A stretch of 40,490 nucleotides of DNA from an uncultured Gammaproteobacteria bacterium (GTDB lineage: Bacteria; Patescibacteriota; Patescibacteriia; Magasanikbacterales; GWA2-37-8). Below, piece by piece: positions 7,974 to 40,255 of the stretch. Position 1 is the stretch's first letter. Every line of letters starts with the position of its first letter. The stretch covers positions 27,888 through 68,377 of the forward strand of contig CAZHTA010000004.1 of assembly GCA_964535515.1 (NCBI GenBank), in the 5' to 3' direction. The notes under the pieces were generated by a model. That model saw only the letters and a list, made by a program, of their open reading frames with translations. It was not told where the DNA came from and searched no databases. Made by a program: the position numbers and the translations under genes.

Positions 7974-7974
7974 C

Positions 7975-10926: not shown

Positions 10927-10960
10927 CGTTGTGCACGTTGTTGGGGCCTGCTCCAATGAG

Positions 10961-11452: not shown

Positions 11453-11473
11453 CTCTCGTTCTCCTATGGTTGT

Positions 11474-11488
11474 GCGACACGCTGTCGC
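11474..11488. promoter_or_regulatory. Inverted repeat GCGACA-CGC-TGTCGC in the 5' region of the island gene (operator or hairpin candidate)
   Basis: Perfect 6-bp arms with a 3-nt spacer, about 20 nt upstream of the SD on the minus strand. Confidence 0.3.
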
Positions 11489-11605
11489 TTGGTCCCAAAT
11501 AAACGTGCAGTTTGTTTCAGATAGTGCTCGGATTTGGTTAAATCCAGGCAAAATCATGGTACCAAACGTTTCAGTATAGTATATTTTCGCTGTTTTGTCA
11601 ATATT

Positions 11606-13087: not shown

Positions 13088-13117
13088 TTTGTTTATATAT
13101 TTTTAACTTATAAAAAT

Positions 13118-14200: not shown

Positions 14201-14210
14201 TATTGTTGTT

Positions 14211-15281: not shown

Positions 15282-15288
15282 TGATTTT

Positions 15289-16839
15289 ATGAAGGTGCTA
15301 AAAACTTTTCCTTTGGCTTTGACCAAAAAAACTGCTAGTCAGTTTAATAAGGCGTTTCATGCCAAGTTATTTACTTTGTTTGCTTCTTCGATGAGTGAAC
15401 TAATGCAGTTGGCTAAGGATTTTCCTGTGCATTATAAACATTGTTTGTGTTTTATTAAAGATGATTTAGGCCAGTGGTTTTTGGGCGCAGATAGCATCGA
15501 AAGAGTTAGGCGGTATATCATAAAAAAAGCTGATGAGGATTTTTCTCAGATAAATAAATATTATTTACGTTGGCAGAAAGACTGGGGTAAGTTTTTAATA
15601 TTAAACAGAAAATTAATTAGTTCAGATTTTAGTTCTTTGACTGACAAGCGGTTGTATAAAGTTTTTGATGAGTTTTATGATCTATATTTAAAAGTAGGTG
15701 GTGTGGCATATATTAGTGATGCCTTTATGTCCTCTGGGGAAAAAGATTGGCTGCAAGAGGTTATAAACCAAGAATTAAAACGCATTTATAAAGATATTGA
15801 AAAAGTAAAAAGGGTGGCGGCGGATTTGATTTCGCCAGTTCATCTTTCTTTTGTTTTGGAAGAAGAACTTGAATTATTAAAACTAGCTCCGGCGTTTATT
15901 AATCTTACTGGTAAATTGGTGGGTTTTAATAAGTTGTCCGCTAAACAACTAGCGCAGCTGGAACGTCATGCTGACAAATATTATTGGATGAATAATAACT
16001 ACTATAACGTAGAATTTTACGATGCATTTTCAGTATATACACATCTGGTCAATCTTTTAGATGGTTTGCAACAAGAAAAACGTAGCCTTAGTGATTTTTT
16101 GGCGGAGAGACAGCGCGAATTAAAGGAAAATAAAACGAGGCGTGAGGGGTTGATTAGTGATATTAAGCTACCAAAAAAGATTAAGAGCTTAATTCGGGTA
16201 GCTAATTTGTTTAGCAAGTGGAAAGACGTTCGGAAAAGTGGTGTGTATCGTGGCATGGCAATTTTTGATAAATTTTTGGGCGAGATAGCAATGCGTACTG
16301 GTTATACAAAAAAGGAAATTACTTTTTTAGTTTTTCCGGAGTTCAAGGATTTATTGTTAAATAGAAAAGATTTTCGGTTGGTTATAAAAGATCGTCAAAA
16401 GCAAATATTTTTTGTGGTGCGTCCGCACGACTATCTTTTGGTTAGCGGTCAAAAGGCGGATAAATATTTTGCTTGTTTGTCCGAAGGACTCAATGCTGAG
16501 ATGAAAGAATTCAAAGGAGCAGTGGCCTCCAAAGGAATCGCGCGCGGGGTGGTGCGGATGATAAGGAAAACAGAAGAGATGAAAGACTTTAAAAAAGGTG
16601 AAATTTTAGTTACCAACAATACTACACCAGAGTTTGTTCCAATCATGAAAAAGGCCGCAGCGATCATTACTGAACAAGGTGGTATAACCTCACATGCTGC
16701 TGTAGTTTCGCGTGAATTGCGTAAGCCGTGTATTATTGGTGTTAAAGGTATTACAACCATTTTAAAAACAGGGGTAGAGGTTGAAGTAGATGCTAATCAT
16801 GGTATAATTAAGATTATTAATAAAAGTTTAAAGAAATAA
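15289..16839 (+). CDS. Swivel-domain paralog 6
   Basis: GEILVTNNTTPEFVPIMKKAAAIITEQGGITSHAAVVSRELRKPCIIGV. N-terminal motif RHADKYYWMNNNYY. Confidence 0.85.
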   Translation: MKVLKTFPLALTKKTASQFNKAFHAKLFTLFASSMSELMQLAKDFPVHYKHCLCFIKDDLGQWFLGADSIERVRRYIIKKADEDFSQINKYYLRWQKDWGKFLILNRKLISSDFSSLTDKRLYKVFDEFYDLYLKVGGVAYISDAFMSSGEKDWLQEVINQELKRIYKDIEKVKRVAADLISPVHLSFVLEEELELLKLAPAFINLTGKLVGFNKLSAKQLAQLERHADKYYWMNNNYYNVEFYDAFSVYTHLVNLLDGLQQEKRSLSDFLAERQRELKENKTRREGLISDIKLPKKIKSLIRVANLFSKWKDVRKSGVYRGMAIFDKFLGEIAMRTGYTKKEITFLVFPEFKDLLLNRKDFRLVIKDRQKQIFFVVRPHDYLLVSGQKADKYFACLSEGLNAEMKEFKGAVASKGIARGVVRMIRKTEEMKDFKKGEILVTNNTTPEFVPIMKKAAAIITEQGGITSHAAVVSRELRKPCIIGVKGITTILKTGVEVEVDANHGIIKIINKSLKK

Positions 16840-16840
16840 T

Positions 16841-17827
16841 ATGCCAAAAGTTTCTCATATTAAGTTTTTTAAGAATATCTCTAAAAGTGATGTTGATATT
16901 GCTGGTGGTAAGGGTGCGTCTTTAGGTGAGATGACACAAGCCAAGATTCCAGTACCAAATGGTTTTGTGGTTTTAGCCGCAGCCTTTGATCGTTTTTTAG
17001 AAGAGACACAATTAAAAGAGGAAATTGTGGCACGGCTAAAGGAAGTTAACCCAGAAGATACTAATTCGGTTGATCGTATTAGTGCGGTTATTCGTGATGC
17101 GATTCATGATCGGTCAATGCCTAAAGATTTGCAGAAAGAAATTTTAGGAGCATTTACTAAGTTAGATGCTAAATTTGTGGCTGTACGTTCATCGGCTACA
17201 GCAGAGGACTCATCTGTTGCTAGCTGGGCAGGGGAGCTGGAGAGTTATTTAAATACGAGTAAAAAAGATTTGATTGAACGGGTGCGTCGTTGTTGGTCGT
17301 CGTTGTTTACTCCGCGTGCTATTTTTTATCGTCATGAAAAAGGGTTAATTGACCATTATGTCTCAGTAGCGGTAGTAGTACAAAAAATGGTGCAGTCAGA
17401 AATTTCTGGCATTGCTTTTACTGTTCATCCAGTAACGGAAGATTATGACCAGATGATTATTGAAGCGGGGTATGGTTTGGGTGAAGCGATTGTCTCTGGA
17501 CAAATTACACCTGATAGCTATGTGATTAGCAAGGGTAGTATGGAGATTATGGATACTTATGTTAGTTCACAAGCTCGTCAGTTAATTCGTAAGAAATCTG
17601 CTAAGAGCAAAGGGGATGAAGAAAACACTTCAAATGAGTGGGTAAATTTAGGTAAAAAAGGTGAAAAACAAAAGGTCGACAACAAAACGGTCTTGGCCCT
17701 GGCCAAAGTATTTAAACGGATTGAGGACCATTACAAGTTTCCGTGTGATATCGAATGGGCTATGGAAAAGAAAAAAATATATATTACCCAAAGTCGTCCG
17801 ATTACTACTTTAAAGAAGAAAAAGTAG
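16841..17827 (+). CDS. Stand-alone PpsA/PPDK N-terminal ATP-grasp (nucleotide-binding) domain protein
   Basis: Collinear with E. coli PpsA residues about 1-345: GGKGASLGEM, IPVPNGFVV, VAVRSSATAEDS..SWAGE, AVVVQKMV, GIAFTVHP, EAGYGLGEAIVSG and DIEWAMEKKKIYITQSRPIT. It ends there, with no His or TIM-barrel domain. 1-nt gap to paralog 6. Confidence 0.9.
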   Translation: MPKVSHIKFFKNISKSDVDIAGGKGASLGEMTQAKIPVPNGFVVLAAAFDRFLEETQLKEEIVARLKEVNPEDTNSVDRISAVIRDAIHDRSMPKDLQKEILGAFTKLDAKFVAVRSSATAEDSSVASWAGELESYLNTSKKDLIERVRRCWSSLFTPRAIFYRHEKGLIDHYVSVAVVVQKMVQSEISGIAFTVHPVTEDYDQMIIEAGYGLGEAIVSGQITPDSYVISKGSMEIMDTYVSSQARQLIRKKSAKSKGDEENTSNEWVNLGKKGEKQKVDNKTVLALAKVFKRIEDHYKFPCDIEWAMEKKKIYITQSRPITTLKKKK

Positions 17828-28395: not shown

Positions 28396-28803
28396 ATGAC
28401 TAAAGTTGCGAAAAAAACTGATGAGAATCGCGCTGTCGGTCGTCGCAAGCGCGCTTCCGCTCGGGTACGTATTACAAAAGGAGAAGGCAAGATTGTTGTG
28501 AATGGAAAAGATTTTAAAGTATATTTTCCACACTTTTCACAGCAAGATGCTGTCATGGCACCATTAGTCGCTTTGGCTAAAGAAAAAGATTTGGATGTTT
28601 CGGTCAAAGTAGTTGGTGGCGGCAAGAAGGGTCAGTCTGTGGCTGTAGGCCATGGTATTGCCCGGGCTTTAGTGGTTTGGAACGAAGAGTTCAAGAAAAC
28701 CCTAAAGACACTTGGTCTTCTTACTCGTGATTCACGTATTAAGGAAAGAAAGAAATTTGGTTTGAAGAAAGCTAGACGTGCACCACAGTGGTCAAAGCGT
28801 TAA
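28396..28803 (+). CDS. rpsI: 30S ribosomal protein S9
   Basis: GRRKRASARVRI...VVGGGKKGQSVAVGHGIARAL...KKARRAPQWSKR. Confidence 0.97.
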   Translation: MTKVAKKTDENRAVGRRKRASARVRITKGEGKIVVNGKDFKVYFPHFSQQDAVMAPLVALAKEKDLDVSVKVVGGGKKGQSVAVGHGIARALVVWNEEFKKTLKTLGLLTRDSRIKERKKFGLKKARRAPQWSKR

Positions 28804-28829
28804 GCTGTTATATATTTTCAAAAGAAAAT

Positions 28830-28853
28830 CCTCCGGAAACGGAGGCTTTTTTT
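28830..28853 (+). terminator. Intrinsic terminator of the ribosomal-protein operon
   Basis: CCTCCG-GAAA-CGGAGG-C-TTTTTTT. Confidence 0.9.
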
Positions 28854-28874
28854 ATCTTTGCTTTTTTTATCTTT
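28845..28874. repeat. Perfect tandem duplication of 15 nt (GCTTTTTTTATCTTT x2)
   Basis: 28845-28859 is identical to 28860-28874. The first copy includes the terminator U-tract. Confidence 0.9.
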
Positions 28875-28897
28875 TTGCGCTAAAATACAGGGGAAAT

Positions 28898-29893
28898 ATG
28901 GAAATAAAAATTGCCAACAATAAAGCTGTTTGGGATGATTTTTTGCTTAAAAACAAAGCGGTTTTTACGCAGTCTTGGGATTGGGGTAGTGTTTTGTTGT
29001 CAGAGGGTAAAAAAGTTGAAAGATTGCTGGTTTTGGATGGGTCTGAAATAACGGCTGCTATTTTAATAGTGTATAATTTTTTCCCTTTTGGTATTAAATA
29101 TGTGGCTAGTGCTTGGGGGCCAGTGTTTGCTGAGGGTTTGGAATCTAAGAGCGGGGAGTGTTTAGATTGTTTAGGTAAATATTTTAAAGATAACGGTTGT
29201 GTGTTTGCTCGAATTGAACCAATGGTTTCTCTTGGTGTTAAAAGTGTTTACAAATTGAGGCCAGTTAAGGACGTTAGCCCAAGTCATACATTGATTTTAG
29301 ATCTTACTTCTAGCGAAGATCAAATTATGTTGGGAATTGAGAAAAAAACCCGTTATGAAATTCGTCAGGCACAGAAAAACAATTTAGAAGTTAGAGAACA
29401 AAAGGATGAAAATATTTTTTGGAGTTTGATGAAAAAAACGGCGAGTCATGATGGTTTTCGCACTCACCCAGAAGAACATTACAAAAAAATATTAGCCAGT
29501 GAAAATAGTGTGCAGTTAAATGCGTATTATCATGGCCAACCAATTGCTACAGCGATCTTTTGGGGTTGGGGTAATATGTTTACATATTTATTTGCGGCAA
29601 CGGATCGTAATTTTAGTAGTTTGTCTGCTGCTTATTTAATTCAGTGGGAAGCGATTAAATTAGCGAAGAGTCGTGAATTTGCGTTATATGATTTTTTTGG
29701 TGTAGCACCAAAGACGTCGGCAGTAGATGCGCCTTATGATTATGATCGCAAACATCGTTATGCTGGTTTTACTAAATTCAAAGTAGGCTTTGGTGGTCAG
29801 TACAAGAAATTTCAAGGTACCTATGATTTAGTGTTAGATTCAAGCAAATATTATTTTTATTTACTCTTACGTTTAATTAAGCGGATATTCTAG
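28898..29893 (+). CDS. FemAB-family peptidoglycan bridge-forming aminoacyltransferase, paralog 1 (ATG 28898 preferred)
   Basis: FTQSWDWGSVL, KTRYEIRQAQKN, GFRTHPEEHY and YLIQWEAIKLAKSREFALYDFFGV. AGGGG lies upstream of the ATG. The track's 5' extension crosses the terminator. Confidence 0.75.
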   Translation: MEIKIANNKAVWDDFLLKNKAVFTQSWDWGSVLLSEGKKVERLLVLDGSEITAAILIVYNFFPFGIKYVASAWGPVFAEGLESKSGECLDCLGKYFKDNGCVFARIEPMVSLGVKSVYKLRPVKDVSPSHTLILDLTSSEDQIMLGIEKKTRYEIRQAQKNNLEVREQKDENIFWSLMKKTASHDGFRTHPEEHYKKILASENSVQLNAYYHGQPIATAIFWGWGNMFTYLFAATDRNFSSLSAAYLIQWEAIKLAKSREFALYDFFGVAPKTSAVDAPYDYDRKHRYAGFTKFKVGFGGQYKKFQGTYDLVLDSSKYYFYLLLRLIKRIF

Positions 29894-29898
29894 TTGGT

Positions 29899-30897
29899 AT
29901 GCTAAAAGTGATTGATAACAAAAATGAGTGGGACAGATTGTTGACGTGTTTTGTTGCTTCTTTTTTACATTCGTGGGAATGGGGCTGTGTCTTGGTTGGT
30001 AGCGGACAAAAGATTGAGCGAATATTAATTGAGAATAACGGCGCAAGTTTGTTGGCTTTGTTAGTTTTTAAAAGTTTACCTTTTGATAAGAAATTTGTTT
30101 TTATTCCTACTGGTCCGTTAATGATTGGTGGTGGGGTTGAAAGTGAAAAGAATTGGCAAGAGTTAATTGCGTATGTAAAAGAAAAAGGAAATATATTTTT
30201 AAAGATTGAACCAAACAATACTGAATTGTTACCTAAGTTTGTTAAACGTTTATCTAAAACAGTTAAAGATGTTAATCCAATGGCAACAATGGTATTGGAT
30301 TTATCTAAGTCAATTGAGGAGATTTCCCAAGCGCTTCATCAAAAGACTAGGTACAATATTAACTTGGCGGAAAAGAAGGGTTTAGTTGTGAAGTGGGAAA
30401 AGAATTTTCCGATATTTTGGGAGTTGATGAAAAAAACCGGTAGTCGTGATGGTTTTGCGTTGCATCCAGGAAAAAATTATCAAGCAGCGATTAATAGTCC
30501 AGTTACGCGTCAGGTAACAATTTATTCGGGTAATATTCCAATAGCGACAGGGTGCTTTTGGATCTTTAAAGATACCTGTTATTATCTCTATGGCGCGTCT
30601 GACCATGATCACCGTCAATTAATGGCGCCATATTTAGTACAATGGGAAGCCATTAGAATGGCTAAAGGCTCAGGTTGTAAGTATTATGATTTTTTTGGTG
30701 TAGCACCGAAGATTAGCAGCAAGAGTGATGAGGAGTATGATTATGACCCAAAGCATCGTTATGCGGGTGTAACCCGCTTTAAATTGGGTTTTAATGGTGT
30801 TGTTAAGGAAACACCGGGTACGTTTGATTTGCCATTAAACCGGTTTTGGTATTGTGTATATTATTTATCACGTCGAATCCGCGGATTAAAAGTTTAG
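29899..30897 (+). CDS. FemAB-family aminoacyltransferase, paralog 2
   Basis: FLHSWEWGCVL, KTRYNINLAEKKG and YLVQWEAIRMAKGSGCKYYDFFGV. Collinear with the upstream paralog. Confidence 0.75.
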   Translation: MLKVIDNKNEWDRLLTCFVASFLHSWEWGCVLVGSGQKIERILIENNGASLLALLVFKSLPFDKKFVFIPTGPLMIGGGVESEKNWQELIAYVKEKGNIFLKIEPNNTELLPKFVKRLSKTVKDVNPMATMVLDLSKSIEEISQALHQKTRYNINLAEKKGLVVKWEKNFPIFWELMKKTGSRDGFALHPGKNYQAAINSPVTRQVTIYSGNIPIATGCFWIFKDTCYYLYGASDHDHRQLMAPYLVQWEAIRMAKGSGCKYYDFFGVAPKISSKSDEEYDYDPKHRYAGVTRFKLGFNGVVKETPGTFDLPLNRFWYCVYYLSRRIRGLKV

Positions 30898-30899
30898 TT

Positions 30900-32351
30900 A
30901 TGTCTTACAGTGTTGCACAAAATGCTACTTTTTTAACAGTTGCCTCTATCTTTCAGCGGATCATTTCTTTTGGCTATTTTATTTTTATTGCCCGAACCAT
31001 TGGGGTAGAGAATACGGGGCAGTATTTTTTTGCGATCGCGTTTACTGCAGTGTTTACGGTAGTTGCTGATTTTGGTTTAAATTTGGCGTTGACACGCGAA
31101 GCAGCACGTAATGATAAAGATTTTGAAACTTATGCTAGCACAATTTTTTGGTCTAAAATTGTTTTTGGTATTTTGTCTTACGGGTTGGTTGTTTTATTTG
31201 CTAATTTACTAGGTTATCCAGTTGCTTTAAAACATCTAATATATTTATCGGGTGTAACAATGTTTTTAGATAATATTCATGCCATTTTTTATAGTTTATT
31301 TCGGGCGCGTAAGAATTTATTATTTGAAGGTATTGGTTTTATTGGTTCACAATTTTTAACTTTGGTGGTGGGTAGTGTGGCGCTATTAATGCACCTGCCG
31401 TTGTATTGGTTAATTTTGGCTTATACTATTCCTTCGGCGTGTAATGTTTTGTATGTTTCTATTGCTGCTCGATTAAAATTGGGGATAAGAATTCGTTGGC
31501 AGTGGGACAGTAAAATGGCTTGGTGGTTTTTAGGTATAGCTGTGCCATTCGCAATTGCTGGGATTATCAATCGGTTGTATTCATACAGTGATTCAATTTT
31601 GATGTCTAAATTACTCACTCACACTGAACTTGGTTTGTGGAGCGTTCCGTACAAGATTAATTTTGCTTTTCAGTTTATCCCTGCAGCCTTGACTGCTAGT
31701 ATTTATCCGGCCATGAGCACGTTGTTTATAACCGATCGCGAGCAGATTGGTGTTTTGTTTGTTAAGGCTTGGCGATATTTGCTGTTAGTAGTGTTGCCGA
31801 TTACTTTTGGGTTATGGGCGGTGGCTGAACCAGTAATTGTGAAGTTGTATGGCCAATCATATTTACCGTCAGTTCCAGTATTAAAAATATTATTAATTAG
31901 TCTGGTGTTAAGTTTCTTGAGTTTTGTTACTGGGGCTACCTTAAATGCAGTCAACAAACAAAAGGTGCAGACTATGTTGTTGGCGGCATCATTGTTAGTG
32001 AGTGTAACCATGAATTTAATTCTGTTGCCAATTTTTGGAATTTTGGGAGCGGCAATTACTGCTGGAGTTAGTAATATCATTTTAACTGGTGGGGGAGCGA
32101 TAATGGTAAGACGTAATGTTGTTATTCGTTGGCGAACGATTTTGGATTATTTGTGGCGTATTTTGTTGTCAGCTGGGATAATGGGGATAGTGGCATATTT
32201 ATTAATACAAAAGATTAGTTTTGTTATTGTGATTCCAGTGGCGGGTGTAATATATTTTGCCTTATTATTTTTAACACGAGCAGTAACAAAAGATTTATTG
32301 TTATCAGTAATTAGAAAAACAAAAATTGAAGATACAAATAATGTAGTATGA
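30900..32351 (+). CDS. MOP-superfamily oligosaccharide/lipid-linked glycan flippase (Wzx/MurJ-like; ATG 30900 preferred)
   Basis: Polytopic, with about 12-14 TM segments. The N-terminus NATFLTVASIFQRIISFGYFIFIARTIGVENTGQYFF is typical of polysaccharide-biosynthesis flippases. Confidence 0.65.
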   Translation: MSYSVAQNATFLTVASIFQRIISFGYFIFIARTIGVENTGQYFFAIAFTAVFTVVADFGLNLALTREAARNDKDFETYASTIFWSKIVFGILSYGLVVLFANLLGYPVALKHLIYLSGVTMFLDNIHAIFYSLFRARKNLLFEGIGFIGSQFLTLVVGSVALLMHLPLYWLILAYTIPSACNVLYVSIAARLKLGIRIRWQWDSKMAWWFLGIAVPFAIAGIINRLYSYSDSILMSKLLTHTELGLWSVPYKINFAFQFIPAALTASIYPAMSTLFITDREQIGVLFVKAWRYLLLVVLPITFGLWAVAEPVIVKLYGQSYLPSVPVLKILLISLVLSFLSFVTGATLNAVNKQKVQTMLLAASLLVSVTMNLILLPIFGILGAAITAGVSNIILTGGGAIMVRRNVVIRWRTILDYLWRILLSAGIMGIVAYLLIQKISFVIVIPVAGVIYFALLFLTRAVTKDLLLSVIRKTKIEDTNNVV

Positions 32352-33460
32352 AAACTTTAATTATCACTCTTGAATATCCACCGCAGATTGGTGGAATCGC
32401 CTCGTATGTTTACAATTTTGTTAAGCACTATTCTTTAGGTGAAGTAATGGTGTATGCGCCGACTATGCCAGGTGGAACTGAGTTTGACATTAAGAATTCT
32501 TGGAAAACAATTCGCCTTAAGCCTTTTTGGGGTTTGCGTCCAAGGTGGTTTAAGTTGTTGTTGCAATTACGTAAGATTATTAAGCAAGAACAAATTAGCG
32601 AGTTGTTTGTTCACCATGTTTTACCCGTTGGTTATGTTGCATATTTGTTGAAGAAAAATTTAGGTATTTCTTATACAATATTTTTGCACGGTACTGATTT
32701 GGAAATGGCGACTAACAAACGTAGTAAAACAAAAAAGTTTGCTAAGATTTGTTTGAATGCGAATAGAGTGGTAGTGAATAGCGAATTTTTGAAAAACAAA
32801 TTATCGAATAAAGTGGAGGGTTTAAAAAATGTTGTGGTATTGTATCCGTGTCCAGGTGATCAATTTTTACAGCCTACTAATCAAGAAGAATTAGAAATAT
32901 TACGTTCTAAGTTAGCTTTAAATGGTAAGAAAGTTTTGTTGACCGTGGCACGTATGGCAGAAGGCAAGGGTTTTCCACATTTAATTCGTTTGTTGCCACA
33001 GATTTTGCAAAAGGTGCCAAATTTAGTTTGGTTAGTGATTGGCGATGGCCCGAAACGGCCAATGTTAGTAGATATGGTGCAGCAAAATAGTCTGCAAAAT
33101 GTTACGCGCTTTTTAGGGGTAGTGCCATATGAAGATTTGGCTAAATACTACAAGCTAGCTGATTTGTTTGTTTTGTTAACCCACAAAGATGAAAGTTCGG
33201 AAGAAGGATGGGGGACAGTATTTTTAGAAGCTGCCGCTAGCAGTCTCCCGGTAGTAGCGGGACGTGTGGGTGGAGTGGAAGAGGTAGTTGATAATTTACG
33301 TACGGGAATTTTAGTGGATGTGTATCAGGATATGAGTGTAGTATCGGGAGTGGCGGACTTATTGCGAGAAGAAAAATATGCGAAAGAGTTAGGAATGGCA
33401 GGGCACGAACGGGTGTTAGCTGAATTTACTTGGGAAAAACAGATTGATAAATTGAAGTAG
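32348..33460 (+). CDS. Glycosyltransferase family 4 (GT-B, 'group 1')
   Basis: EGWGTVFLEAAASSLPVVAGRVGGVEEVV (the E-x7-E region), plus the GT4-type N-terminal half. Confidence 0.8.
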   Translation: MKTLIITLEYPPQIGGIASYVYNFVKHYSLGEVMVYAPTMPGGTEFDIKNSWKTIRLKPFWGLRPRWFKLLLQLRKIIKQEQISELFVHHVLPVGYVAYLLKKNLGISYTIFLHGTDLEMATNKRSKTKKFAKICLNANRVVVNSEFLKNKLSNKVEGLKNVVVLYPCPGDQFLQPTNQEELEILRSKLALNGKKVLLTVARMAEGKGFPHLIRLLPQILQKVPNLVWLVIGDGPKRPMLVDMVQQNSLQNVTRFLGVVPYEDLAKYYKLADLFVLLTHKDESSEEGWGTVFLEAAASSLPVVAGRVGGVEEVVDNLRTGILVDVYQDMSVVSGVADLLREEKYAKELGMAGHERVLAEFTWEKQIDKLK

Positions 33461-33468: not shown

Positions 33469-34830
33469 ATGGAACAGGTGAATATTAAAAGATACAAAGA
33501 TTCTTTTAAGTGGCAGTTTGGTGCTTATCCTTTTTTTACTTCGGTTTTTACTAAATGCGCTGATTTGAAAATTAAAAAGAAACATCATCTTTGTTTTAAT
33601 GAATATATTAGTAATTTTGAAAATGATTCAGTAACAGCGTTTATTCCATGGGAAGTTTTTGAAACACCTGGTAGGAAGATTATTAAAAAAATACTAGCAG
33701 GGGACAAGTATTATTATAACGAAATAAAAAGAACACATAGTGCAGTTAAAAAAGCTATTGCAGCATGTTTGTTGGCGCGGTCTAAAAATGTTAATGAATT
33801 GGGTAGGTGGTGGAGATTAACTCAGGATGCGCTATCGGATGTTAGTCGTGTATTATATTCATTTGATTTTACTTTTGATTTATTTTTAAATGAATTAAGA
33901 GCGAAGGATCAGGATTTGTTTGTGGTGTTGTTAGAGAATATAAAAACAAAAGAAAAATCTTTTCTTGAGGAAGCCTCGGCTAAGTTGTTAAAATTAAAAT
34001 CAGAAAGCAGTGATTTTAAAAAGGTCTATATTAAATTTGTTAAAGAGTTTGGGTGGTTTCAAAATAGTTATAGAGGAGTTTTTAAATTCGATGAGACTTG
34101 GTTGAAACAGTATTTAAAAAATATTTTGCAGCCAAATAAAAAGGACAAAGCAAAGGCGCCGGGCGTTGTTCCGTCTAAATACAAGTTATTAGTTAAGTTG
34201 GCGAAAGAAACGATAGTGTTTAGAGATGACAAGAAAAAATTATTACTAGTCGCAGCAGATGTGATGGATAGTTGGCTAAGGAGAGTTTGCAAAGAACACG
34301 GTTGGTCTTTTGAAGCAATGCGTTGGTTAACAGTAGATGAGATATTGGATGTAATAGAAAATGGTAATAAAAAGAATTTGGTGTTGGCAGAAAAATATTA
34401 CAAAGCCAAGCGACGCATTGGTGTTATGGTCAGTACAGGTTATTTAGATATTAGTAAAAAAGATTGGGACAAAATATATTTGTTGTACTTTACTTCTAAG
34501 AGTGGTTTGGTAAAAGGATTGGCAGCTAACAAAGGTGTCTATAGAGGAACGGTGCGAGTAATTTTAGATCCAGTGAAGGATGCAAAAAAGTTTTATCCAG
34601 GAGATGTTTTAGTCGCCTCGATGACTCGTCCGGAGTATATTAGTCTAATGAGTAAGGCGGGTGCTTTTGTGACTGATGAAGGTGGAATATCTTGTCATGC
34701 TGCTATTGTGGCTAGAGAAATGGGGAAGCCGTGTATTATTGGCACCAGAAATGCTACTAAGATGTTAAAGGATGGTGATTTTGTGGAGGTGGATGCTAAT
34801 ATTGGAATTATTAAAGTCGTTAAAAATTAA
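33469..34830 (+). CDS. Swivel-domain paralog 7
   Basis: GDVLVASMTRPEYISLMSKAGAFVTDEGGISCHAAIVAREMGKPCIIGT. N-terminal motif FVKEFGWFQNSYRG. Confidence 0.85.
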   Translation: MEQVNIKRYKDSFKWQFGAYPFFTSVFTKCADLKIKKKHHLCFNEYISNFENDSVTAFIPWEVFETPGRKIIKKILAGDKYYYNEIKRTHSAVKKAIAACLLARSKNVNELGRWWRLTQDALSDVSRVLYSFDFTFDLFLNELRAKDQDLFVVLLENIKTKEKSFLEEASAKLLKLKSESSDFKKVYIKFVKEFGWFQNSYRGVFKFDETWLKQYLKNILQPNKKDKAKAPGVVPSKYKLLVKLAKETIVFRDDKKKLLLVAADVMDSWLRRVCKEHGWSFEAMRWLTVDEILDVIENGNKKNLVLAEKYYKAKRRIGVMVSTGYLDISKKDWDKIYLLYFTSKSGLVKGLAANKGVYRGTVRVILDPVKDAKKFYPGDVLVASMTRPEYISLMSKAGAFVTDEGGISCHAAIVAREMGKPCIIGTRNATKMLKDGDFVEVDANIGIIKVVKN

Positions 34831-34843
34831 TTTACGATTGTAA

Positions 34844-35461
34844 ATGATTATGAATAAGTCTTTTATCTTTGATTGGTCTGGGACGCTAAGTGACAATTTC
34901 AACTGCTTTTGTAAAGTGTGTGATTTGATGTTTCCGGAATTAGGGCGAGAAAAAATTACTCCTGAAGAAATTAGGAAGGAGTTTACTTTACCGTATATGT
35001 CTTTTTGGAATAAATATTTTCCGGAATTATCCCAAGAAAAACAATGTGGAATGTATGTAAAATATATTCATCAGGTTGGTAATCCGAATCTTTATCCGGG
35101 TGTAAAAGAAGTAATTACAGCATTGCATGGCGGTGGTCATAAGATATTTATTGCAAGTTCCGATCCAGAATCAAAGATAACAGAAGAAATTGAAGCTTCA
35201 GGTTTAAAGGATTTTTTAAGTGGGTATTATTTTGAATTACAAGATAAGACTGAAAAGATTATGGAGCTGGTTAATAATACGCCTTTAGATATTAACAGTA
35301 CTTACTATATTGGTGATACTTTTGGTGATGTTGAGATGGGTAAAAAAGCGGGTGTTAAAACAGTTGGTATTTCTTGGGGGTTTCAGAGTCGTGAGGGTTT
35401 GGCTCTGAGTAAACCGGATTTTTTAATTGATGATATTTTAGAGATTAAAAATATTATATAA
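34844..35461 (+). CDS. HAD-superfamily hydrolase-fold protein with atypical motif I (DWSGT)
   Basis: Motif I is FIFDWSGTL, with Ser at Asp+2. Also IASSD (motif II-like) and YIGDTFGDVEMGKKAGV (motif IV). Confidence 0.75.
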   Translation: MIMNKSFIFDWSGTLSDNFNCFCKVCDLMFPELGREKITPEEIRKEFTLPYMSFWNKYFPELSQEKQCGMYVKYIHQVGNPNLYPGVKEVITALHGGGHKIFIASSDPESKITEEIEASGLKDFLSGYYFELQDKTEKIMELVNNTPLDINSTYYIGDTFGDVEMGKKAGVKTVGISWGFQSREGLALSKPDFLIDDILEIKNII

Positions 35462-35466
35462 ATTTT

Positions 35467-36561
35467 GTGCGTTCAGTATTGAATACAATTAAAAAATTTG
35501 ATTTAGAAGTGGCCACTAAAAGACCTCTACCTTTGTTTACCTTGAGTTGTATAGGGAAAACCTATGTGGATGTATTAAAAAAGAAATATTTTAAGTGTAA
35601 TTATGAGGCTGTAGCTGGTTGGGGTGATAAAAATGGTTTTGTATCTTTACTTAATGAAGAGGCGGTGGTGGATACAATGGCAAATAAGTTAAAAAAAGAA
35701 AAAGATATAAAAAAGAAGTTTGTGGTACCTCTACAAACCAATTTTGTAAAGTTTAAGAAAGAATTTAATGTATTGTTGTCTAATTTGGGAAGAAAGAATG
35801 CGTTGTTAAGTTTAAAACTTTTGTCTAAGTATTATATTGACTATCTCGTGATCTTAGGTAGCTTGAATTGTCTTTGGCGATATATTGGTGATAACGCCGT
35901 AACAAAGTGTAACAAAAAAGACATTGAATATTTTGCCAAAGCCAGGGGAAATGTTGCAGAAATATATCCGCAGATGGAAGGGGCTCTTTCTTTGTTGTGT
36001 AACAAAATTGGTGAGCAGCAAAAATTTGACGGCGATTTGTTGCGATATTTTACTCGCGCAGAGTTAGATAATTTTTTAGACAAAAAGGAATTGTTAAATT
36101 TGGAAAAGCAACAAAAGTTAAAGAAGAGGAAAGTTGGATATTTTTATATTTACACTAAAAATACTGAAGAAGTTGTAACTGAGGACAACGTTTTAATAAA
36201 AAAGATCAAACAGTTTGCACTTAAAAATAGCCAGCCCAAGTCAGGATTAAAAGGTACAGTTGTTTATCTAGGCAAGGTAGAAGCAAAGGTGTTTAATTTT
36301 GATCAAAATTTTAAGAAAGCACCTGCTGGTAAATTTATTTTGGTAACACACATGACTCATCCTAAAGATTTAACGTTGATTAAAAAATCACTAGGGATAA
36401 TTACTGATGAAGGGGGAGTGTTGTGTCATGCGGCGATTATGGCGCGTGAACTCAAGAAGCCGTGTATAATTGGTACAAAGGTGGCTACGCAATTATTAAA
36501 AACCGGTATGAGTGTTGAATTAGATTGTTACAAAGGAACTATTAAAATAATTAAAAAATAA
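35467..36561 (+). CDS. Swivel-domain paralog 8 (GTG start; short, 364 aa)
   Basis: GKFILVTHMTHPKDLTLIKKSLGIITDEGGVLCHAAIMARELKKPCIIGT. Confidence 0.8.
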   Translation: MRSVLNTIKKFDLEVATKRPLPLFTLSCIGKTYVDVLKKKYFKCNYEAVAGWGDKNGFVSLLNEEAVVDTMANKLKKEKDIKKKFVVPLQTNFVKFKKEFNVLLSNLGRKNALLSLKLLSKYYIDYLVILGSLNCLWRYIGDNAVTKCNKKDIEYFAKARGNVAEIYPQMEGALSLLCNKIGEQQKFDGDLLRYFTRAELDNFLDKKELLNLEKQQKLKKRKVGYFYIYTKNTEEVVTEDNVLIKKIKQFALKNSQPKSGLKGTVVYLGKVEAKVFNFDQNFKKAPAGKFILVTHMTHPKDLTLIKKSLGIITDEGGVLCHAAIMARELKKPCIIGTKVATQLLKTGMSVELDCYKGTIKIIKK

Positions 36562-36564: not shown

Positions 36565-37422
36565 ATGCCAGATAAATATACTGCCGTTTGGGTTTCACAC
36601 TCTTCGATTAGTGATTGGTTGCATTGTCCGCAGGCATATTTTTTGCAAAATGTGTATCGTGATCCTAAGACCAATCATAAGATAAGAATAACACGCCCCA
36701 GTTTGTCTTTGGGTAGTGCGGTGCATGAAGTTTTAGAAGGAATTTCTTTGTTACCAAAAGAAACTCGTTTTAACGAATCACTTGTTTCTAAGCTTGAAGA
36801 TGCTTGGAAAAGAGTCAGTGGTAAAAGAGGTGGGTTTTTAGATTCAGAAAGTGAGTACCGGTATAAAATGCGTGGTCAGGAGATGCTGCGTCGAGTAATG
36901 AACCACAAAGATGTTTTAGCTGGTCCAGCGGTAAAAATCAAAGAAGATTTACCCCATTTTTGGTTGTCAGAAGAAGATAACATAATTTTGTGTGGTAAGA
37001 TTGACTGGTTGGAATATTTACCAGAGATTGACAGTGTGCATATTATCGATTTTAAGACGGGGAAAAGTGAAGAGGATCCAGATTCACTGCAGTTACCAAT
37101 ATATCATTTGTTGGTTCACAATTGTCAAAAACGTAAAGCCGTAAAAGCTAGTTATTGGTATGTAGAATCAAGTGATGGTTTAACAGAAAAAGTTTTGCCT
37201 GACTTAGAATCATCAAGAAAAAAAGTTTTGGCAATCGCTCGTGATATTAAAATGGCGCGACAATTGAAACGTTTTAAATGCCCAGAAGGGGAGAGTTGTA
37301 AATTTTGTCAGCCACTTTTGAATGTAACCAAAGGTTTGGGTGAATTAGTTGGGACGGACGATTACAAAAGTGACATATATATCTTGCCGGTGGCTGAGGA
37401 AAAGGAAAGTGTTATACTTTAA
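36565..37422 (+). CDS. PD-(D/E)XK nuclease with a Cas4/AddB-type four-Cys cluster
   Basis: SHSSISDWLHCPQAYFL (N-terminal Cys), GKIDW...HIIDFKTGK (D...DxK), QLPIYHLL and the C-terminal CPEGESCKFCQP. Confidence 0.7.
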   Translation: MPDKYTAVWVSHSSISDWLHCPQAYFLQNVYRDPKTNHKIRITRPSLSLGSAVHEVLEGISLLPKETRFNESLVSKLEDAWKRVSGKRGGFLDSESEYRYKMRGQEMLRRVMNHKDVLAGPAVKIKEDLPHFWLSEEDNIILCGKIDWLEYLPEIDSVHIIDFKTGKSEEDPDSLQLPIYHLLVHNCQKRKAVKASYWYVESSDGLTEKVLPDLESSRKKVLAIARDIKMARQLKRFKCPEGESCKFCQPLLNVTKGLGELVGTDDYKSDIYILPVAEEKESVIL

Positions 37423-37429
37423 TCTTTTT

Positions 37430-38137
37430 ATGGATTTAATTTCTGTTATTATCCCAGTTTACAACCAAGCGCAAGTGTTGCGCCGATCTTTGGTTTCGCT
37501 TTTGCATCAAACATATCGACCGCTAGAAGTTATTGTAGTAAATGATGGTAGTACGGATAATTTTTCTACGGTGATGAATGAAATCTTAGCAGAAGAACAA
37601 TTTAAAGATTTAAAGATCAAAGTTATTAATCAGCCAAACCAGGGCGCTCCATCGGCACGCAATCACGGGTTTAGTGAATCACTTGGTCATTATATTATAT
37701 TTTGGGATGCTGATACTATCGCTAAGTCAGAAATGTTAACAATCATGCATCAAGTATTAACTGGTAATCCAACAGCCAGCTGGGTGTATTCGCAATTTTG
37801 TTTTGGTTGGAAGAAGATGCGTGGAGCAGCTTTTGATGTTGAGTTATTAAAAAAGAATAATTATATTGATGTTACGAGTTTAATTCGTCGTGATGCTTTT
37901 GTTCCGTTTGATGAAAAGCTAAAACGTTTTCAAGATTGGGATTTGTGGTTGTCTTTAACTGAGAAAGGTAAGAGCGGTGTTTTTATTCCTAAAGTGTTGT
38001 ACAAAAAAATAACTAACCCGGTTGGGATTAGCGCGTGGCTTCCAAGTTTCTTTTTTAAGTTACCTTGGAAAGTTGGCAAGGTAGAAAAATATGAGGCAGC
38101 TGCTCAGATTGTTAAGAAGAAACATGGTTTGGCTTAG
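37430..38137 (+). CDS. Glycosyltransferase family 2 (ATG 37430 preferred)
   Basis: ISVIIPVYNQAQVLRRSL, VIVVNDGSTD, APSARNHG and FWDADT. Confidence 0.85.
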   Translation: MDLISVIIPVYNQAQVLRRSLVSLLHQTYRPLEVIVVNDGSTDNFSTVMNEILAEEQFKDLKIKVINQPNQGAPSARNHGFSESLGHYIIFWDADTIAKSEMLTIMHQVLTGNPTASWVYSQFCFGWKKMRGAAFDVELLKKNNYIDVTSLIRRDAFVPFDEKLKRFQDWDLWLSLTEKGKSGVFIPKVLYKKITNPVGISAWLPSFFFKLPWKVGKVEKYEAAAQIVKKKHGLA

Positions 38138-39500
38138 TTGCTGTGGCAGCAATAAGGGTAAGTAAAATTATTCCAAAGACATGGAAAAGTGCCGGCGAAG
38201 TAAGGGTGCTAATCATTAAGACGGAGATGGTTGTAAAAGCAAGAGTTTGATACTCTGCTTTTTTTATTATCTCCAAAATTAATGTGAACCACAATATTAA
38301 ACCAACCAAACCTAATTCTGCCCAGATTTCTAAATATCCCCAATCAAAATGTGGTGTGGTGATAGTTTGTTTAAATATGGGGCTGTAAGCAGAAACAGTA
38401 TCTCCCAAACCTTGGCCAATAACCGGGGTGGCCATAATCTTCTTTTTTATTTCCGGCAACAGCAACATGCGACTAAGAGAACTTTCTTCAATCGATGGAC
38501 TGGTAATACTTTGTAAGCGTAATCCAAATATTTCCCAACCTAGACTTTGTCCACGGCTAGCGATGAAATGAACAGCGGTGAATCCGATTATTAAGATCAA
38601 GACAAAAGTAGCACTACATTTTAACCAGGTCAGCCAGTATTCTTTTTTGAAGAGTAGTAATATACCAACAAAAAATGCTAAATAATATATTCGTGTTAAG
38701 TTTACAGCCAAAACTAAGATGGTTATGGCTGCTAAAGTCCAATTAAGTTTGGTGTTTTTCTTTTTTAATATCTCAAGCATCAGCCAGAGTAGTATTGGAA
38801 CAATTAGCAGGTGCTCATTTAAAACCAAACGAACAAAGTGAAAAGGTAAGGCAGTGATTTTTCCTCCCGCAACATCACGATACCAATGGTAGTAATTATC
38901 TTGTAAGGCAAAGAGGTTAAGAGAAAATCCACAGAAAGTAAAAAAGATAATAATAAAATTACCAACTAGAGCAGCAATTAAAATATTTTTTGTTGTATTT
39001 AAAAATTTTGAATCACGAGTAATAATTTCTTTGAGCGGAAAATAGTAACAAAAAAAGAAATAGGGGACAGTGTCGGCAATGATACTACTTAAAGCGTGCC
39101 CATTTTTAATACCAATGAGTGCTGAAATAACTGCCCAACCAATTAGTGTGAGAATGATAAAAAAAAGTTTGTCGCTAGTGATATCTTTAATTTTTTTATC
39201 TTGTATTTTTTTAACCAAAAAGATAATGAGGGAAAAAACTAGAAGAAGTGTGCGAAGTGATATGCTACCGACTCCTAGGTAACTACCAGATCCACCCAGT
39301 ATGATTTCAGCGGCAATAATATACCAACCACGTGAATCGTCGTTAATTAAAAGATAACTAACAGTTATTGCGATAATTCCTGATACAAAGATATTAATGA
39401 TGCTGGCACCTAAAAGTGGAGTATCAGGTGTAAAAACAAAAGAAAAGATTCTTAAGACAAAGAAGGCAATGAGAGATAGGCTAAAAATCTTTTTATCCAT
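38112..39500 (-). CDS. Polytopic membrane protein, O-antigen ligase/polymerase (Wzy_C)-like
   Basis: About 11-12 TM segments with a larger loop near the C-terminal third. Sits next to glycosyltransferases. This is a weak family call. Confidence 0.4.
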   Translation of the reverse strand: MDKKIFSLSLIAFFVLRIFSFVFTPDTPLLGASIINIFVSGIIAITVSYLLINDDSRGWYIIAAEIILGGSGSYLGVGSISLRTLLLVFSLIIFLVKKIQDKKIKDITSDKLFFIILTLIGWAVISALIGIKNGHALSSIIADTVPYFFFCYYFPLKEIITRDSKFLNTTKNILIAALVGNFIIIFFTFCGFSLNLFALQDNYYHWYRDVAGGKITALPFHFVRLVLNEHLLIVPILLWLMLEILKKKNTKLNWTLAAITILVLAVNLTRIYYLAFFVGILLLFKKEYWLTWLKCSATFVLILIIGFTAVHFIASRGQSLGWEIFGLRLQSITSPSIEESSLSRMLLLPEIKKKIMATPVIGQGLGDTVSAYSPIFKQTITTPHFDWGYLEIWAELGLVGLILWFTLILEIIKKAEYQTLAFTTISVLMISTLTSPALFHVFGIILLTLIAATATKPNHVSS

Positions 39501-39502: not shown

Positions 39503-40255
39503 TTAAACCATTTTAACGTCAGCTAAGTTATGAATACCGTTTATCCAAGACAAGGCCGGCATAGTATTTTTACCTTCGGGTTGTAAGGTGATAATTTCTA
39601 ATGATCCAACTTTACACCCGATTAGTACTTTACTTTTTTCTAATACTATTTTCCCAGTTGGCATTTCAGTGTCAGTTGGTAGTACTTCTAAGAGTTTGAT
39701 TCGCTTGTCTTGAAAAGTGGTCCATAGCCCTGGCCAGACTTCTAAACCACGACCAAGATTGTAAATTTCAGTAGCAGTTTTGTTCCAATCGATGTGTCCG
39801 CTTTCTTTGGTAAACATGGTACAAAAAGTTGCTTGGGACTCATCCTGGATTTGGGGTTTAATTGTACCTGCCAAATAGTTTGGGATAGTCTCTGTAAGCC
39901 CTAAAATTGCCGTTTTAAGCAGTTTTCCAGCCAAAGTAGTGTAAGTGTCAGTTGGATCGATTTTTACTATGCCAGAATGTAAAATTGGTCCATGATCCAT
40001 CTTTTCGTCCATAAGCATAATCGAGACGCCGGTTTCAGTTTCGCCATTAATTAAAACTGACTGAATAGGGGAGGCACCACGATATTTTGGTAAAAGTGAG
40101 GGGTGGACATTGATTGACCCAAATTTAGGTGCTTCAACAATCCGTTTCGGGATAATGAGTCCATATTCGCAGACAATATTTAACTCAATATTTTCCGGGA
40201 AGATGTATTCTTTTAATTTTAGAAATGGATATGGGTTTTTAAACAATTGCGACAT
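39503..40255 (-). CDS. fmt: Methionyl-tRNA formyltransferase, N-terminally short (250 aa)
   Basis: YGLIIPKRIV..GSINVHPSLLPKYRGASPIQSVLINGETETGVSIMLMDEKMDHGPIL, plus the C-terminal tRNA-binding domain. The first roughly 40-60 residues of canonical Fmt (the GTPxFA region) are absent, and an in-frame stop lies 2 codons upstream of the ATG. Confidence 0.85.
   Translation of the reverse strand: MSQLFKNPYPFLKLKEYIFPENIELNIVCEYGLIIPKRIVEAPKFGSINVHPSLLPKYRGASPIQSVLINGETETGVSIMLMDEKMDHGPILHSGIVKIDPTDTYTTLAGKLLKTAILGLTETIPNYLAGTIKPQIQDESQATFCTMFTKESGHIDWNKTATEIYNLGRGLEVWPGLWTTFQDKRIKLLEVLPTDTEMPTGKIVLEKSKVLIGCKVGSLEIITLQPEGKNTMPALSWINGIHNLADVKMV

Follow-up and report, generated by a model that had tools for sequence, protein, structure and literature searches.

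The window analysed here, the whole stretch of 40,490 nt, contains a trio of genes on the plus strand, in which two genes for proteins with a swivel domain flank a gene for a protein of the HAD fold. The open reading frame check and the Pfam search placed the first swivel gene, p7, at 33469..34830 (453 aa, a candidate H-type dikinase module), the HAD gene at 34844..35461 (205 aa; HAD_2, PF13419, E 5.7e-21) and the second swivel gene, p8, at 35467..36561 (364 aa, a candidate short H-type module), which agrees with the original prediction. Upstream, at 28778..33460 on the same strand, are envelope genes: two FemAB genes (28778-29893 and 29899-30897), a Polysacc_synt flippase gene (30846-32351) and a GT4 gene (32348-33460). 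A Cas4-like PD-(D/E)XK nuclease gene (36565-37422) follows p8 and forms a plus-strand block with a GT2 gene (36565..38137), and a convergent gene on the minus strand (38112..39500) encodes a Wzy_C, O-antigen ligase-like membrane protein (PF04932, E 8e-11). The envelope context predicted earlier was thus recovered with small corrections. The GT2 reading frame, listed from 37349, likely starts at the ATG at 37430. The only PPDK_N ATP-grasp gene of the window stands alone at 16841..17827 on the plus strand (PF01326, E 1.1e-95). The envelope genes and the trio are co-directional and tightly packed, and the gaps from GT4 through p7, HAD and p8 to the nuclease gene are 8, 13, 5 and 3 nt.

We then compared this arrangement with those in other genomes. 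The upstream envelope genes have the same order in the nearest relative, L087, and its nuclease is 81% identical to the one here. The trio, however, reads GT4-HAD-p8-p7-nuclease in L087, i.e. HAD-p8-p7 instead of p7-HAD-p8, so the bracketing of the HAD gene, which the original prediction pointed out, is not kept even there. Elsewhere, the orthologs of p7 and p8 are found in canonical arrays, in fusions or beside a tRNA synthetase gene, and envelope genes do not accompany them. The p7-HAD-p8 arrangement is lineage-specific, and so is the proposed link of p7 and p8 to envelope or glycan synthesis. The three genes are nevertheless closely packed (5-13 nt) and stay together in L087, the single close relative at hand, with the HAD gene directly upstream of p8, which is compatible with a real coupling.

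The swivel domain (PF00391, PEP-utilizers mobile domain) covers residues 377-445 of p7 (E 4.8e-25) and residues 290-357 of p8 (E 9.6e-23). Its histidine lies in the motif TDEGGISCH in p7 (His410, codon 34696-34698) and TDEGGVLCH in p8 (His321, codon 36427-36429), and the underlying pattern T-x-x-G-G-x-x-x-H is retained in all eight paralogs of the window. In p7 the swivel domain is preceded by a helical substrate-binding domain (about residues 1-340), and the predicted model matches rifampin phosphotransferase (RPH) across both domains. The RIF-binding domain of RPH thus has a homolog in p7, in the same chain as the swivel domain, and this is the make-up of an H component. In p8 the N-terminal domain is about 250 aa long. 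The NCBIfam RPH-like model PRK06241.2-3 aligns residues 153-363 of p8 to profile positions 610-820 of 827, so that on sequence profiles the likeness to RPH-like families reaches upstream of the swivel domain; moreover, an ortholog family of about 365 aa exists. The earlier view of p7 and p8 as simple phospho-His carriers does not survive these RPH-like features.

The paralogs differ mainly in their N-terminal parts: their swivel domains are 45-56% identical, but the N-terminal domains can barely be aligned. A search of 1.84 billion proteins with the N-terminal domain of p7 alone gave matches in only 46 representative clusters, a small number which indicates that each orthogroup has an N-terminal domain of its own. 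The NCBIfam model PRK08296, which we take to represent the PpsA-type or PpsA-HpeH family, scored 85 bits against p7 and 58 bits against p8 (cutoff 578), and in the swivel domain only. Scores so far below the cutoff mark p7 and p8 as a distinct branch and not as orthologs of PpsA or HpeH.

The best known parallels are HpeHI, CreHI and PpsAB, in which the H protein (or PpsA) combines a substrate-binding domain with the histidine swivel domain and the I protein (or PpsB) is a separate ATP-grasp protein (PMC12167813). The same split is seen between p7 or p8 and the ATP-grasp protein encoded at 16841, and in both p7 and p8 the residue before the catalytic His is a Cys, just as HpeH has C580-H581 (PMC12167813). 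There are also differences. First, the known systems are single adjacent pairs, whereas here eight H-type genes go with one ATP-grasp gene, and two of the eight lie 16.6 kb from it. Second, the H proteins here have 364-517 aa, compared with about 600-640 aa in the HpeH, CreH and PpsA systems. Third, the hosts are Patescibacteria and DPANN archaea, not degraders of aromatic compounds, and no aromatic catabolic genes are found nearby. RPH itself (PDB 5hv1, 5fbu), unlike p7 and p8, includes an ATP-grasp domain in its one polypeptide chain of about 865 aa (the entries have 867-883 residues); identity to it is only 12-17%, and rifamycin as the substrate has no support.

The ATP-grasp protein at 16841 matches the N-terminal profiles of RPH and PEP synthase and is 56% identical to the product of the gene that closes a single array in another Patescibacterium, L173. 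The array begins with a p8-like gene and continues, in this order, with p5-like and p4-like genes, an ortholog of p7 (44% identical), a p3-like gene and the ATP-grasp gene. L011 encodes a polyprotein in which an ATP-grasp domain precedes the p7 ortholog (42% identity over 448 aa). Such fusions are single uninterrupted reading frames in which one N-terminal ATP-grasp domain is followed by 4-8 H modules, and they occur in L063 (3363 aa), L032 (at least 3550 aa), L011 and L023. There is never more than one ATP-grasp gene per locus, and exactly one in 39 loci, while swivel reading frames number from 1 to 13, with up to 13 in one locus of about 20 kb. Since the L173 array and the fusions join modules of this kind to an ATP-grasp gene or domain, p7 and p8 probably use the ATP-grasp protein at 16841 in trans, as had been proposed. 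The distance of 16.6 kb, together with a comparison that covered the window, means that another partner could exist elsewhere in the genome.

We consider it fairly likely that p7 and p8 are substrate-specific H modules of a split RPH-like ATP dikinase, and that the HAD protein between them belongs to an independent family. On the model of RPH and HpeHI, ATP would be bound by the one ATP-grasp "I" protein (16841-17827), and the beta-phosphate would move to the swivel histidine, His410 in p7 or His321 in p8, with release of AMP and Pi. The swivel domain would then swing back to the N-terminal domain of its own chain and phosphorylate a hydroxyl-bearing acceptor held there, and the acceptors would differ between p7 and p8. 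In the source lineage, p7 and p8 appear to have split off from the main array (6519-17827) and now lie within a string of envelope genes. The HAD protein would be a Mg-dependent phosphoryl-transfer enzyme that is normally independent of swivel modules.

In the HAD protein, motif I reads FDWSGT (34868-34885). As noted earlier, the nucleophile Asp10 is kept and Ser12 takes the place of the Asp+2 general acid/base. The other hallmarks of the subfamily are present: motif II (ASSD, with its Ser), motif III (DKTEK, with the lysine K135), the acidic pair of motif IV (GDTFGD) and the C1 cap. In the AF2 model (pLDDT 95), helices 19-32, 40-46, 51-58 and 64-75 lie between strand 1 and the core, which makes the protein, as modelled, a member of subfamily IA with a C1 four-helix cap. 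The best Foldseek match was 2ah5 (TM 0.85), and 2hsz, 4ex7 and 2nyv, also with C1 caps, were matched as well. In an alignment of 38 sequences W11, S12, G13, T14, S105, K135, D158 and D162 are invariant; at least 90% of the members keep Asp10, and one has Asn in its place. The family is conserved in Patescibacteria and DPANN archaea, with Ser at Asp+2 throughout. The earlier analysis had also raised the view of an ordinary sugar phosphatase in which DWSGT is common. The motif is indeed common within the subfamily (109 of 120 homologs) and hence not peculiar to the gene at 34844, but the subfamily is uncharacterised and is not one of ordinary sugar phosphatases.

We compared the protein with three groups of characterised HAD enzymes. 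First, phosphonatase, PhnX (PDB 1fez, 2iof), is likewise a subfamily IA enzyme with a C1 cap; its motif FDWAGT, which contains the DWAGT correctly given in the original prediction, resembles FDWSGT, and the N-terminal 45 residues are colinear. The Schiff-base Lys53 of PhnX, however, falls on Tyr51 of the HAD protein by ungapped extension of an alignment that ends at L51 of PhnX and L49 of the HAD protein. Tyr51 is near-invariant (at least 90% of the members have it). With Lys53 absent and a TIGR01422 score of 26.5 bits against a cutoff of 220, an assignment as phosphonoacetaldehyde hydrolase was rejected. Second, the subfamily of LHPP and HDHD2 has a C2-type cap. LHPP (PDB 2x4d) shares with our protein the HAD superfamily and a Ser at Asp+2, and so provides a precedent in an enzyme acting on P-N bonds and pyrophosphate; it differs in subfamily and cap type and has no specific sequence relationship. 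An LHPP-type phosphatase was rejected, as the model has a C1 cap and LHPP is absent among the PDB matches. Third, phosphatases of the COG0546 type, which in their characterised members carry the canonical DxD motif, gave the best sequence and fold matches (Gph, PpaX, MupP, AlnB and SP0104/2ah5) and have the C1 cap in common, but every NCBIfam equivalog score was far below its cutoff (e.g., 61 against 218 bits for PpaX).

HAD orthologs outside the source lineage were then surveyed for neighbouring swivel genes, and none was found in seven annotated contexts and 34 metagenomic loci (243 kb of flank). The trio is thus no example of a conserved module that pairs carriers with a HAD protein, and the position of the HAD gene here is best taken as a lineage-specific juxtaposition. 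The contexts of the orthologs vary. Among remote DWSGT HADs, 27 of 49 have at least 330 aa, and all three of those scanned against NCBIfam are HAD-Nudix fusions; the Nudix hydrolase domain, in a sister clade, is the only fusion partner seen elsewhere. A HAD family with a fixed Ser at Asp+2 and a Nudix-fused sister clade represents an uncharacterised type of enzyme.

The swivel family as a whole, on the other hand, is associated with phosphatases. Of 88 genes embedded in arrays at 78 loci, Pfam assigns 26 to a phosphohydrolase fold (13 His_Phos_1, eight HD, three HAD and two LMWPc), against about 1% of distant genes, and in a set of 139 control genes none of these families ranks in the top 25 (array-embedded versus control, conservative Fisher test, p <= 1.8e-6). 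The enrichment that the original prediction had asked to be sought by neighbourhood analysis is therefore present, and of its recurrent module of carrier and phosphatase the association with phosphatases stands, while the DWSGT HAD is not part of it in the 41 loci outside the lineage. Seven array-associated HADs, of another family than the DWSGT one, also do without Asp+2. Together with the enrichment, this makes it possible that the DWSGT HAD was recruited as the phosphatase for the product of p7 or p8.

A broader and rather unlikely reading can be drawn from the same data. In it, Patescibacteria and DPANN archaea would possess a modular phosphorylation system with one ATP-grasp "charger", up to a dozen acceptor-specific modules in arrays or giant polyproteins, and dedicated "eraser" phosphatases; HADs without Asp+2, including the DWSGT protein in the lineage studied here, would have been recruited to act on phospho-His or on products, and two modules would be wired into envelope glycan synthesis. 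In the two-component RPH-like dikinases known from the catabolism of aromatic compounds, each H protein is paired with one I protein, whereas here one ATP-grasp gene goes with many H modules, and some organisms have a protein longer than 3300 aa in which 7-8 modules are joined to one ATP-grasp domain. Genomes in these lineages are typically about 1 Mb in size, and for such genomes the arrays are a large investment in uncharacterised phosphorylation chemistry. No paper on these arrays was found in the literature searched, a search that was not exhaustive and is not proof of novelty.

It is unlikely that the trio is a kinase-phosphatase cassette of envelope synthesis, in which the neighbouring genes would supply an intermediate (a sugar, or a lipid-linked or peptidoglycan-related compound), p7 and/or p8 would add a phosphate to it and the HAD protein would take this phosphate off again. 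The genes all run in one direction, only 3-13 nt separate them, and a convincing terminator was not found between GT4 and GT2; promoter and terminator scans, however, were at chance level, and short gaps count for little in the compact genomes of Patescibacteria. L087 retains these genes as a set, in L089 the p7 ortholog has a Wzy_C gene two genes away, and one HAD ortholog lies in the order BacA-YceG-HAD-PMT_2-GT2. Array phosphatases of at least four folds would also fit product-specific rather than generic phosphatases. Against this stand the envelope-free settings of the p7 and p8 orthologs in other lineages and the varied contexts of the HAD orthologs.

It is quite unlikely that phospho-His of the swivel domain donates to Asp10 of the HAD protein, a phosphotransfer considered in the original prediction, or that the HAD protein resets p7 and p8 as a phospho-His phosphatase, with Ser12 tuning the chemistry. 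Human LHPP has the motif I DISGV (sequence of PDB 2x4d), but its cap type differs and the parallel is an analogy only. The histidine-phosphatase (RHG) superfamily includes SixA, a known phospho-His phosphatase, and small RHG-motif genes are found in many arrays, where the seven HADs lacking Asp+2 point the same way. However, the DWSGT family keeps its Ser in all 41 swivel-free ortholog loci and in Nudix fusions, so that Ser did not evolve for a partnership with p7 and p8. Moreover, a common reset enzyme would not predict phosphatases of at least four folds beside highly similar swivel domains.

That p7 and p8 inactivate foreign small molecules (such as antibiotics or host metabolites) in the manner of RPH, with the arrays as a resistance repertoire and the HAD protein unrelated, appears improbable. 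RPH is the closest solved structure, the N-terminal domains are strongly diversified and copy number ranges widely between loci, but p7 keeps 40-50% identity from Patescibacteria to DPANN archaea, which suggests a common conserved substrate and not an arms-race target. Among p7, p8 and the HAD protein none has a meaningful match to a defence model, with only p8 marginal (E 0.002, 15 bits). This proposal concerns the substrate and is compatible with the split-dikinase mechanism.

Finally, the idea that PEP synthase or PPDK survives in p7 and p8 as fragments or in degenerate form is extremely improbable and effectively refuted: relatives bear these names in databases and the best PDB sequence matches are swivel domains of PEP synthases, but the reading frames are full-length and intact, the families have invariant residues in the N-terminal domain, PF00391 is the only Pfam domain in either chain, with neither a PEP/pyruvate-binding TIM barrel nor an ATP-grasp domain, and the NCBIfam models for PEP synthase give 119 and 76 bits, where the cutoff is 598. 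Genes of this kind are routinely named "PEP-utilizing enzyme" or "PEP synthase" ("phosphoenolpyruvate synthase"); as the PEP/pyruvate-binding domain is missing, to deduce gluconeogenesis from them when the metabolism of ultra-small symbionts is reconstructed is wrong.

The second locus comprises three genes on the forward strand: swivel-domain paralog 7 (p7; 33469–34830, 453 aa), a HAD gene (34844–35461, 205 aa; HAD_2, E 5.7e-21) and paralog 8 (p8; 35467–36561, 364 aa). Both paralogs end in a C-terminal PEP-utilizers mobile (swivel) domain (Pfam E 4.8e-25 for p7 and 9.6e-23 for p8) and retain the T-x-x-G-G-x-x-x-H motif, whose histidine is His410 in p7 and His321 in p8. Motif I of the HAD protein is FDWSGT, in which Asp10 is retained and Ser12 occupies the Asp+2 position, and motifs II (S105), III (K135) and IV (D158, D162) are intact. 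Two FemAB genes, a Polysacc_synt flippase gene and a GT4 gene lie 5' of the trio, while a Cas4-like PD-(D/E)XK nuclease gene, a GT2 gene and a convergent Wzy_C gene lie 3' of it; the intergenic gaps at the trio are 8, 13, 5 and 3 nt. The three ORFs, the Ser at Asp+2 and this gene context had been described from the DNA alone, and ORF and Pfam checks bore them out. Relatives of p7, p8 and the HAD protein come from Patescibacteria and DPANN archaea. Promoter-like sites (46, with 48.7 expected) and terminator-like sites (9, with 11.9 expected) occur at chance frequency and so give no information on operon boundaries. The window contains no Rfam matches and no tRNAs.

The original prediction regarded p7 and p8 as phospho-His carriers, but they are not bare carriers. 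The AlphaFold model of p7, built on an ortholog alignment (pLDDT 92), has rifampin phosphotransferase RPH-Lm (5hv1, 5fbu) as its top Foldseek match, with E ~1e-12 and the whole query covered. For p8, RPH-like “PEP synthase” families in NCBIfam give profile alignments that begin at residue 153, far ahead of the swivel domain. Two-component dikinases of this kind are already known, namely HpeHI, CreHI and the phenylphosphate synthase PpsAB, in which the H component carries RIF-binding-like and swivel domains and the I component an ATP-grasp domain; mutation of the catalytic His in HpeH abolished activity (PMC12167813). This is exactly the split seen between p7 or p8 and the separate ATP-grasp protein, and the Cys preceding the catalytic His of HpeH is also present in p7 and p8. 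Most likely, p7 and p8 are H-type dikinase components. They do not belong to the orthologous family of PpsA and HpeH, as the PRK08296 models, which we take to represent PpsA-type proteins, match the swivel domain only and far below cutoff. Nor are they PEP synthases, because the TIM-barrel and ATP-grasp domains are both absent.

The two paralogs align with the others of the window mainly in the swivel domain, which is 45–56% identical among them. In contrast to this shared domain, the N-terminal domains are, judged by sequence, orthogroup-specific, which fits different acceptors for different modules. A search of 1.84 billion proteins with the N-terminal domain of p7 alone yielded only 46 representative clusters. 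The p7 orthologs of Patescibacteria and DPANN (about 450 aa, 40–50% identical) have invariant residues across the N-terminal 340 aa, in keeping with more than a bare carrier. Some database proteins of about 700 aa (P0198, P0203) have a swivel domain fused to a UDP-GlcNAc 2-epimerase domain (PF02350), which hints at a role in sugar-nucleotide metabolism for at least some of the modules.

Against eight swivel paralogs, the window holds only one ATP-grasp (PPDK_N) gene, at 16841–17827 on the forward strand. We scanned one genome per species and annotated 78 swivel loci with purpose-built HMMs. Arrays of 2–13 swivel ORFs are common among these loci in Patescibacteria and DPANN. An ATP-grasp gene never occurs more than once per locus, and 39 loci contain exactly one. 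Moreover, in several organisms an uninterrupted ORF encodes one N-terminal ATP-grasp domain followed by 4–8 tandem H modules, each consisting of a substrate-binding domain and a His swivel domain with the T-x-x-G-G-x-x-x-H motif. Such giant ORFs were found in Parcubacteria and DPANN genome assemblies at L063 (1004–11095; 3363 aa, 7 His motifs), L032 (2–10654; at least 3550 aa, 8 His motifs), L011 (7007–14173; 2388 aa) and L023 (5228–11881; 2217 aa), and the DNA of all four is free of internal stop codons and of N. In the L011 polyprotein, module 3 is orthologous to p7 (42% identity over 448 aa). The array at L173 runs p8-like, p5-like, p4-like, p7 ortholog, p3-like and ATP-grasp, with identities to the window of 33% for the p8-like protein (full length), 44% for the p7 ortholog and 56% for the ATP-grasp protein. 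Together with the fusions, this array makes the second locus of the window look as if it had broken away from a canonical array. The L173 array, the single ATP-grasp gene per locus and the L011-type fusions also back the predicted dependence of p7 and p8 on the ATP-grasp gene at 16841, which on these comparisons is likely. In the literature searched we found no account of such arrays, of one ATP-grasp serving many modules, of the giant polyproteins, of the phosphatase enrichment reported below or of the spread over Patescibacteria and DPANN; the trio locus points to an unexplored system.

The phosphoryl steps, unlike the domains, folds, motifs, gene orders and enrichment figures observed here, are proposed by homology with RPH and HpeHI. 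The ATP-grasp protein would transfer the beta-phosphate of ATP to His410 or His321, releasing AMP and Pi, and the swivel domain would then hand the phosphate to an acceptor bound by its own N-terminal domain.

A pairing of carrier and phosphatase had been predicted as a recurrent module, and for the paralog family in general it is recurrent. A Pfam census of 88 array-embedded genes gave 13 His_Phos_1, 8 HD, 3 HAD and 2 LMWPc matches (26/88), while none of these four families reaches the top 25 among 139 control genes from the same loci, lying four or more genes away. With the controls given the maximum compatible with that top-25 list, the Fisher test gave p <= 1.8e-6, for loci that are phylogenetically non-independent. 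Purpose-built phosphatase HMMs gave 34/88 embedded genes against 4/330 (p ~1e-21), a biased figure since the HMMs were built from array-embedded clusters; the Pfam census is therefore the unbiased estimate. A phosphatase-type neighbour is present in 33 of 60 multi-paralog loci. A conserved HD-domain protein, of about 200 aa with the motif MHDIGH, lies on the same strand inside the arrays of 13 loci (L019, L022, L026, L027, L040, L052, L057, L059, L064, L068, L071, L072 and L081). Further recurrent array-internal genes are OTCase/ATCase-like (5 loci), PTA_PTB (4 loci) and TrmB-type regulators (archaeal loci). In the main operon of the window, a 198-aa ORF on the reverse strand between paralogs 3 and 4 (10961–11557) carries the RHG histidine-phosphatase motif in a THG version (LITHGSKGPGADPGLTSKG) and has similar ORFs in three further arrays (L036, L045, L057); its Pfam His_Phos_1 match reaches only E 0.005, and it would be the second phosphatase-like gene of that operon.

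The HAD protein of the trio was not found to share this association. No PF00391 gene is present in seven independent annotated contexts of DWSGT HADs, and no swivel gene in 34 ortholog loci (243 kb of flank); a swivel ORF turned up at just one remote-relative locus, where 5 kb separate it from the HAD gene. Conversely, an HMM of the DWSGT family run over the 78 swivel loci gave a single match, at L073, which comes from a distinct family. This family comprises the seven array-associated HADs (L049, L055, L064, L072, L073, L075, L086), which are about 200 aa long and lack Asp at Asp+2, with motif I of the form D-x-Y/A/S/G (DISD, DVAG, DLYG, DFYG, DTGG). The trio occurs elsewhere only in the close relative L087 (identities: HAD 68%, p8 53%, p7 77%, nuclease 81%), where the order is GT4-HAD-p8-p7-nuclease, so the adjacency of HAD and then p8 is conserved but the bracketing by p7 and p8 is not. 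A recurrent module of this HAD and the paralogs is accordingly unsupported.

The original prediction also raised how common DWSGT is and which subfamily and cap type the HAD has. DWSGT is found in 109 of 120 homologs and is, by sequence, the signature of the family rather than a quirk of the window protein. The other 11 comprise one DWAGT, one DWSGV and nine unmatched by the search pattern (seven N-terminally truncated, one DWSGT with a preceding Cys and one NWSGT). In a 38-sequence alignment, I8, F9, W11, S12, G13, T14, L15 and the cap signature PYMxFWN are invariant. The AlphaFold model (pLDDT 95) has a Rossmannoid core and a four-helix C1 cap, with COG0546-type enzymes as best matches (2ah5 at TM 0.85, 2hsz, AlnB and Gph); the protein is thus a subfamily IA HAD of ordinary fold and known kind. 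The named COG0546 enzymes Gph, PpaX and MupP all scored far below cutoff, and no NCBIfam equivalog came near it. The original prediction gave the phosphonatase motif as DWAGT, correctly: the N-terminus of PhnX (FDWAGT) is colinear with that of the HAD in the alignment. Phosphonatase identity is rejected, as near-invariant Tyr51 stands at the position of the Schiff-base Lys53 and TIGR01422 is far below cutoff.

A metagenome scan for DWSGT HADs (80 loci), with the contexts L090–L092, gave 34 orthologs and 49 remote relatives. The latter are 25–31% identical and have the same IFDWSGT motif, and 27 of the 49 are at least 330 aa long; three long ones scanned against NCBIfam all have an N-terminal HAD and a C-terminal Nudix domain. 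Proteins of about 350–400 aa with a DWSGT-type HAD domain and a C-terminal Nudix domain were seen on soil and marine metagenome contigs (L141, L147, L150, e.g. 7995–9062, L154, L160, L165, L170), and NCBIfam has no named family for these fusions. Nudix genes near the orthologs of Patescibacteria and DPANN give a weak signal (4/38 loci versus 2/78 control loci, p = 0.02).

On the simplest reading, the HAD is an enzyme in its own right. It belongs to a conserved family for which Nudix is the one fusion partner observed elsewhere. Given how frequently phosphatases are recruited in other arrays, it may have been recruited as a product phosphatase. The HAD might also be a phospho-His phosphatase, by analogy only with LHPP, which likewise has Ser at Asp+2; however, the array phosphatases represent at least four folds, against near-uniform swivel domains, a contrast that would favour phosphatases directed at the products rather than a generic reset of phospho-His. 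An anti-phage defence role is rejected, since with PADLOC models only the PD-(D/E)XK protein matches, to Cas4-like models, while p7, the HAD, the ATP-grasp protein and the His-phosphatases have none and p8 is marginal (E 0.002, 15 bits).

An envelope role had also been predicted. The envelope context is common to the window and L087, and it is partially echoed at L089, where the p7 ortholog has a Wzy_C gene two genes away, and by one HAD ortholog between YceG and PMT_2. In L088, however, the p7 ortholog adjoins a tRNA synthetase gene, and L009, L010 and L014 are arranged similarly; further p7 orthologs are members of arrays (L012, L173) or parts of fusions. An envelope substrate for p7 and p8 is possible, with weak support.

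Further points concern the window itself. As listed, the GT2 ORF starts from a TTG, so that 74 nt overlap the nuclease gene (37349–37430); the conserved GT2 sequence starts at ATG 37430 (MDLISVIIPVYNQ), which is more likely the true start. The methionyl-tRNA formyltransferase ORF (39503–40255, reverse strand, 250 aa) aligns only to residues 66–303 of the 303-aa Fmt of L087, and nothing matching the first 65 residues is encoded in the 235 nt upstream; a truncation, a rearrangement or an assembly problem is possible. Paralog 5 (14154–15281, forward strand, 375 aa) has, beside its C-terminal swivel-domain match, an extra partial one at residues 42–96, which may be the remnant of an upstream module.
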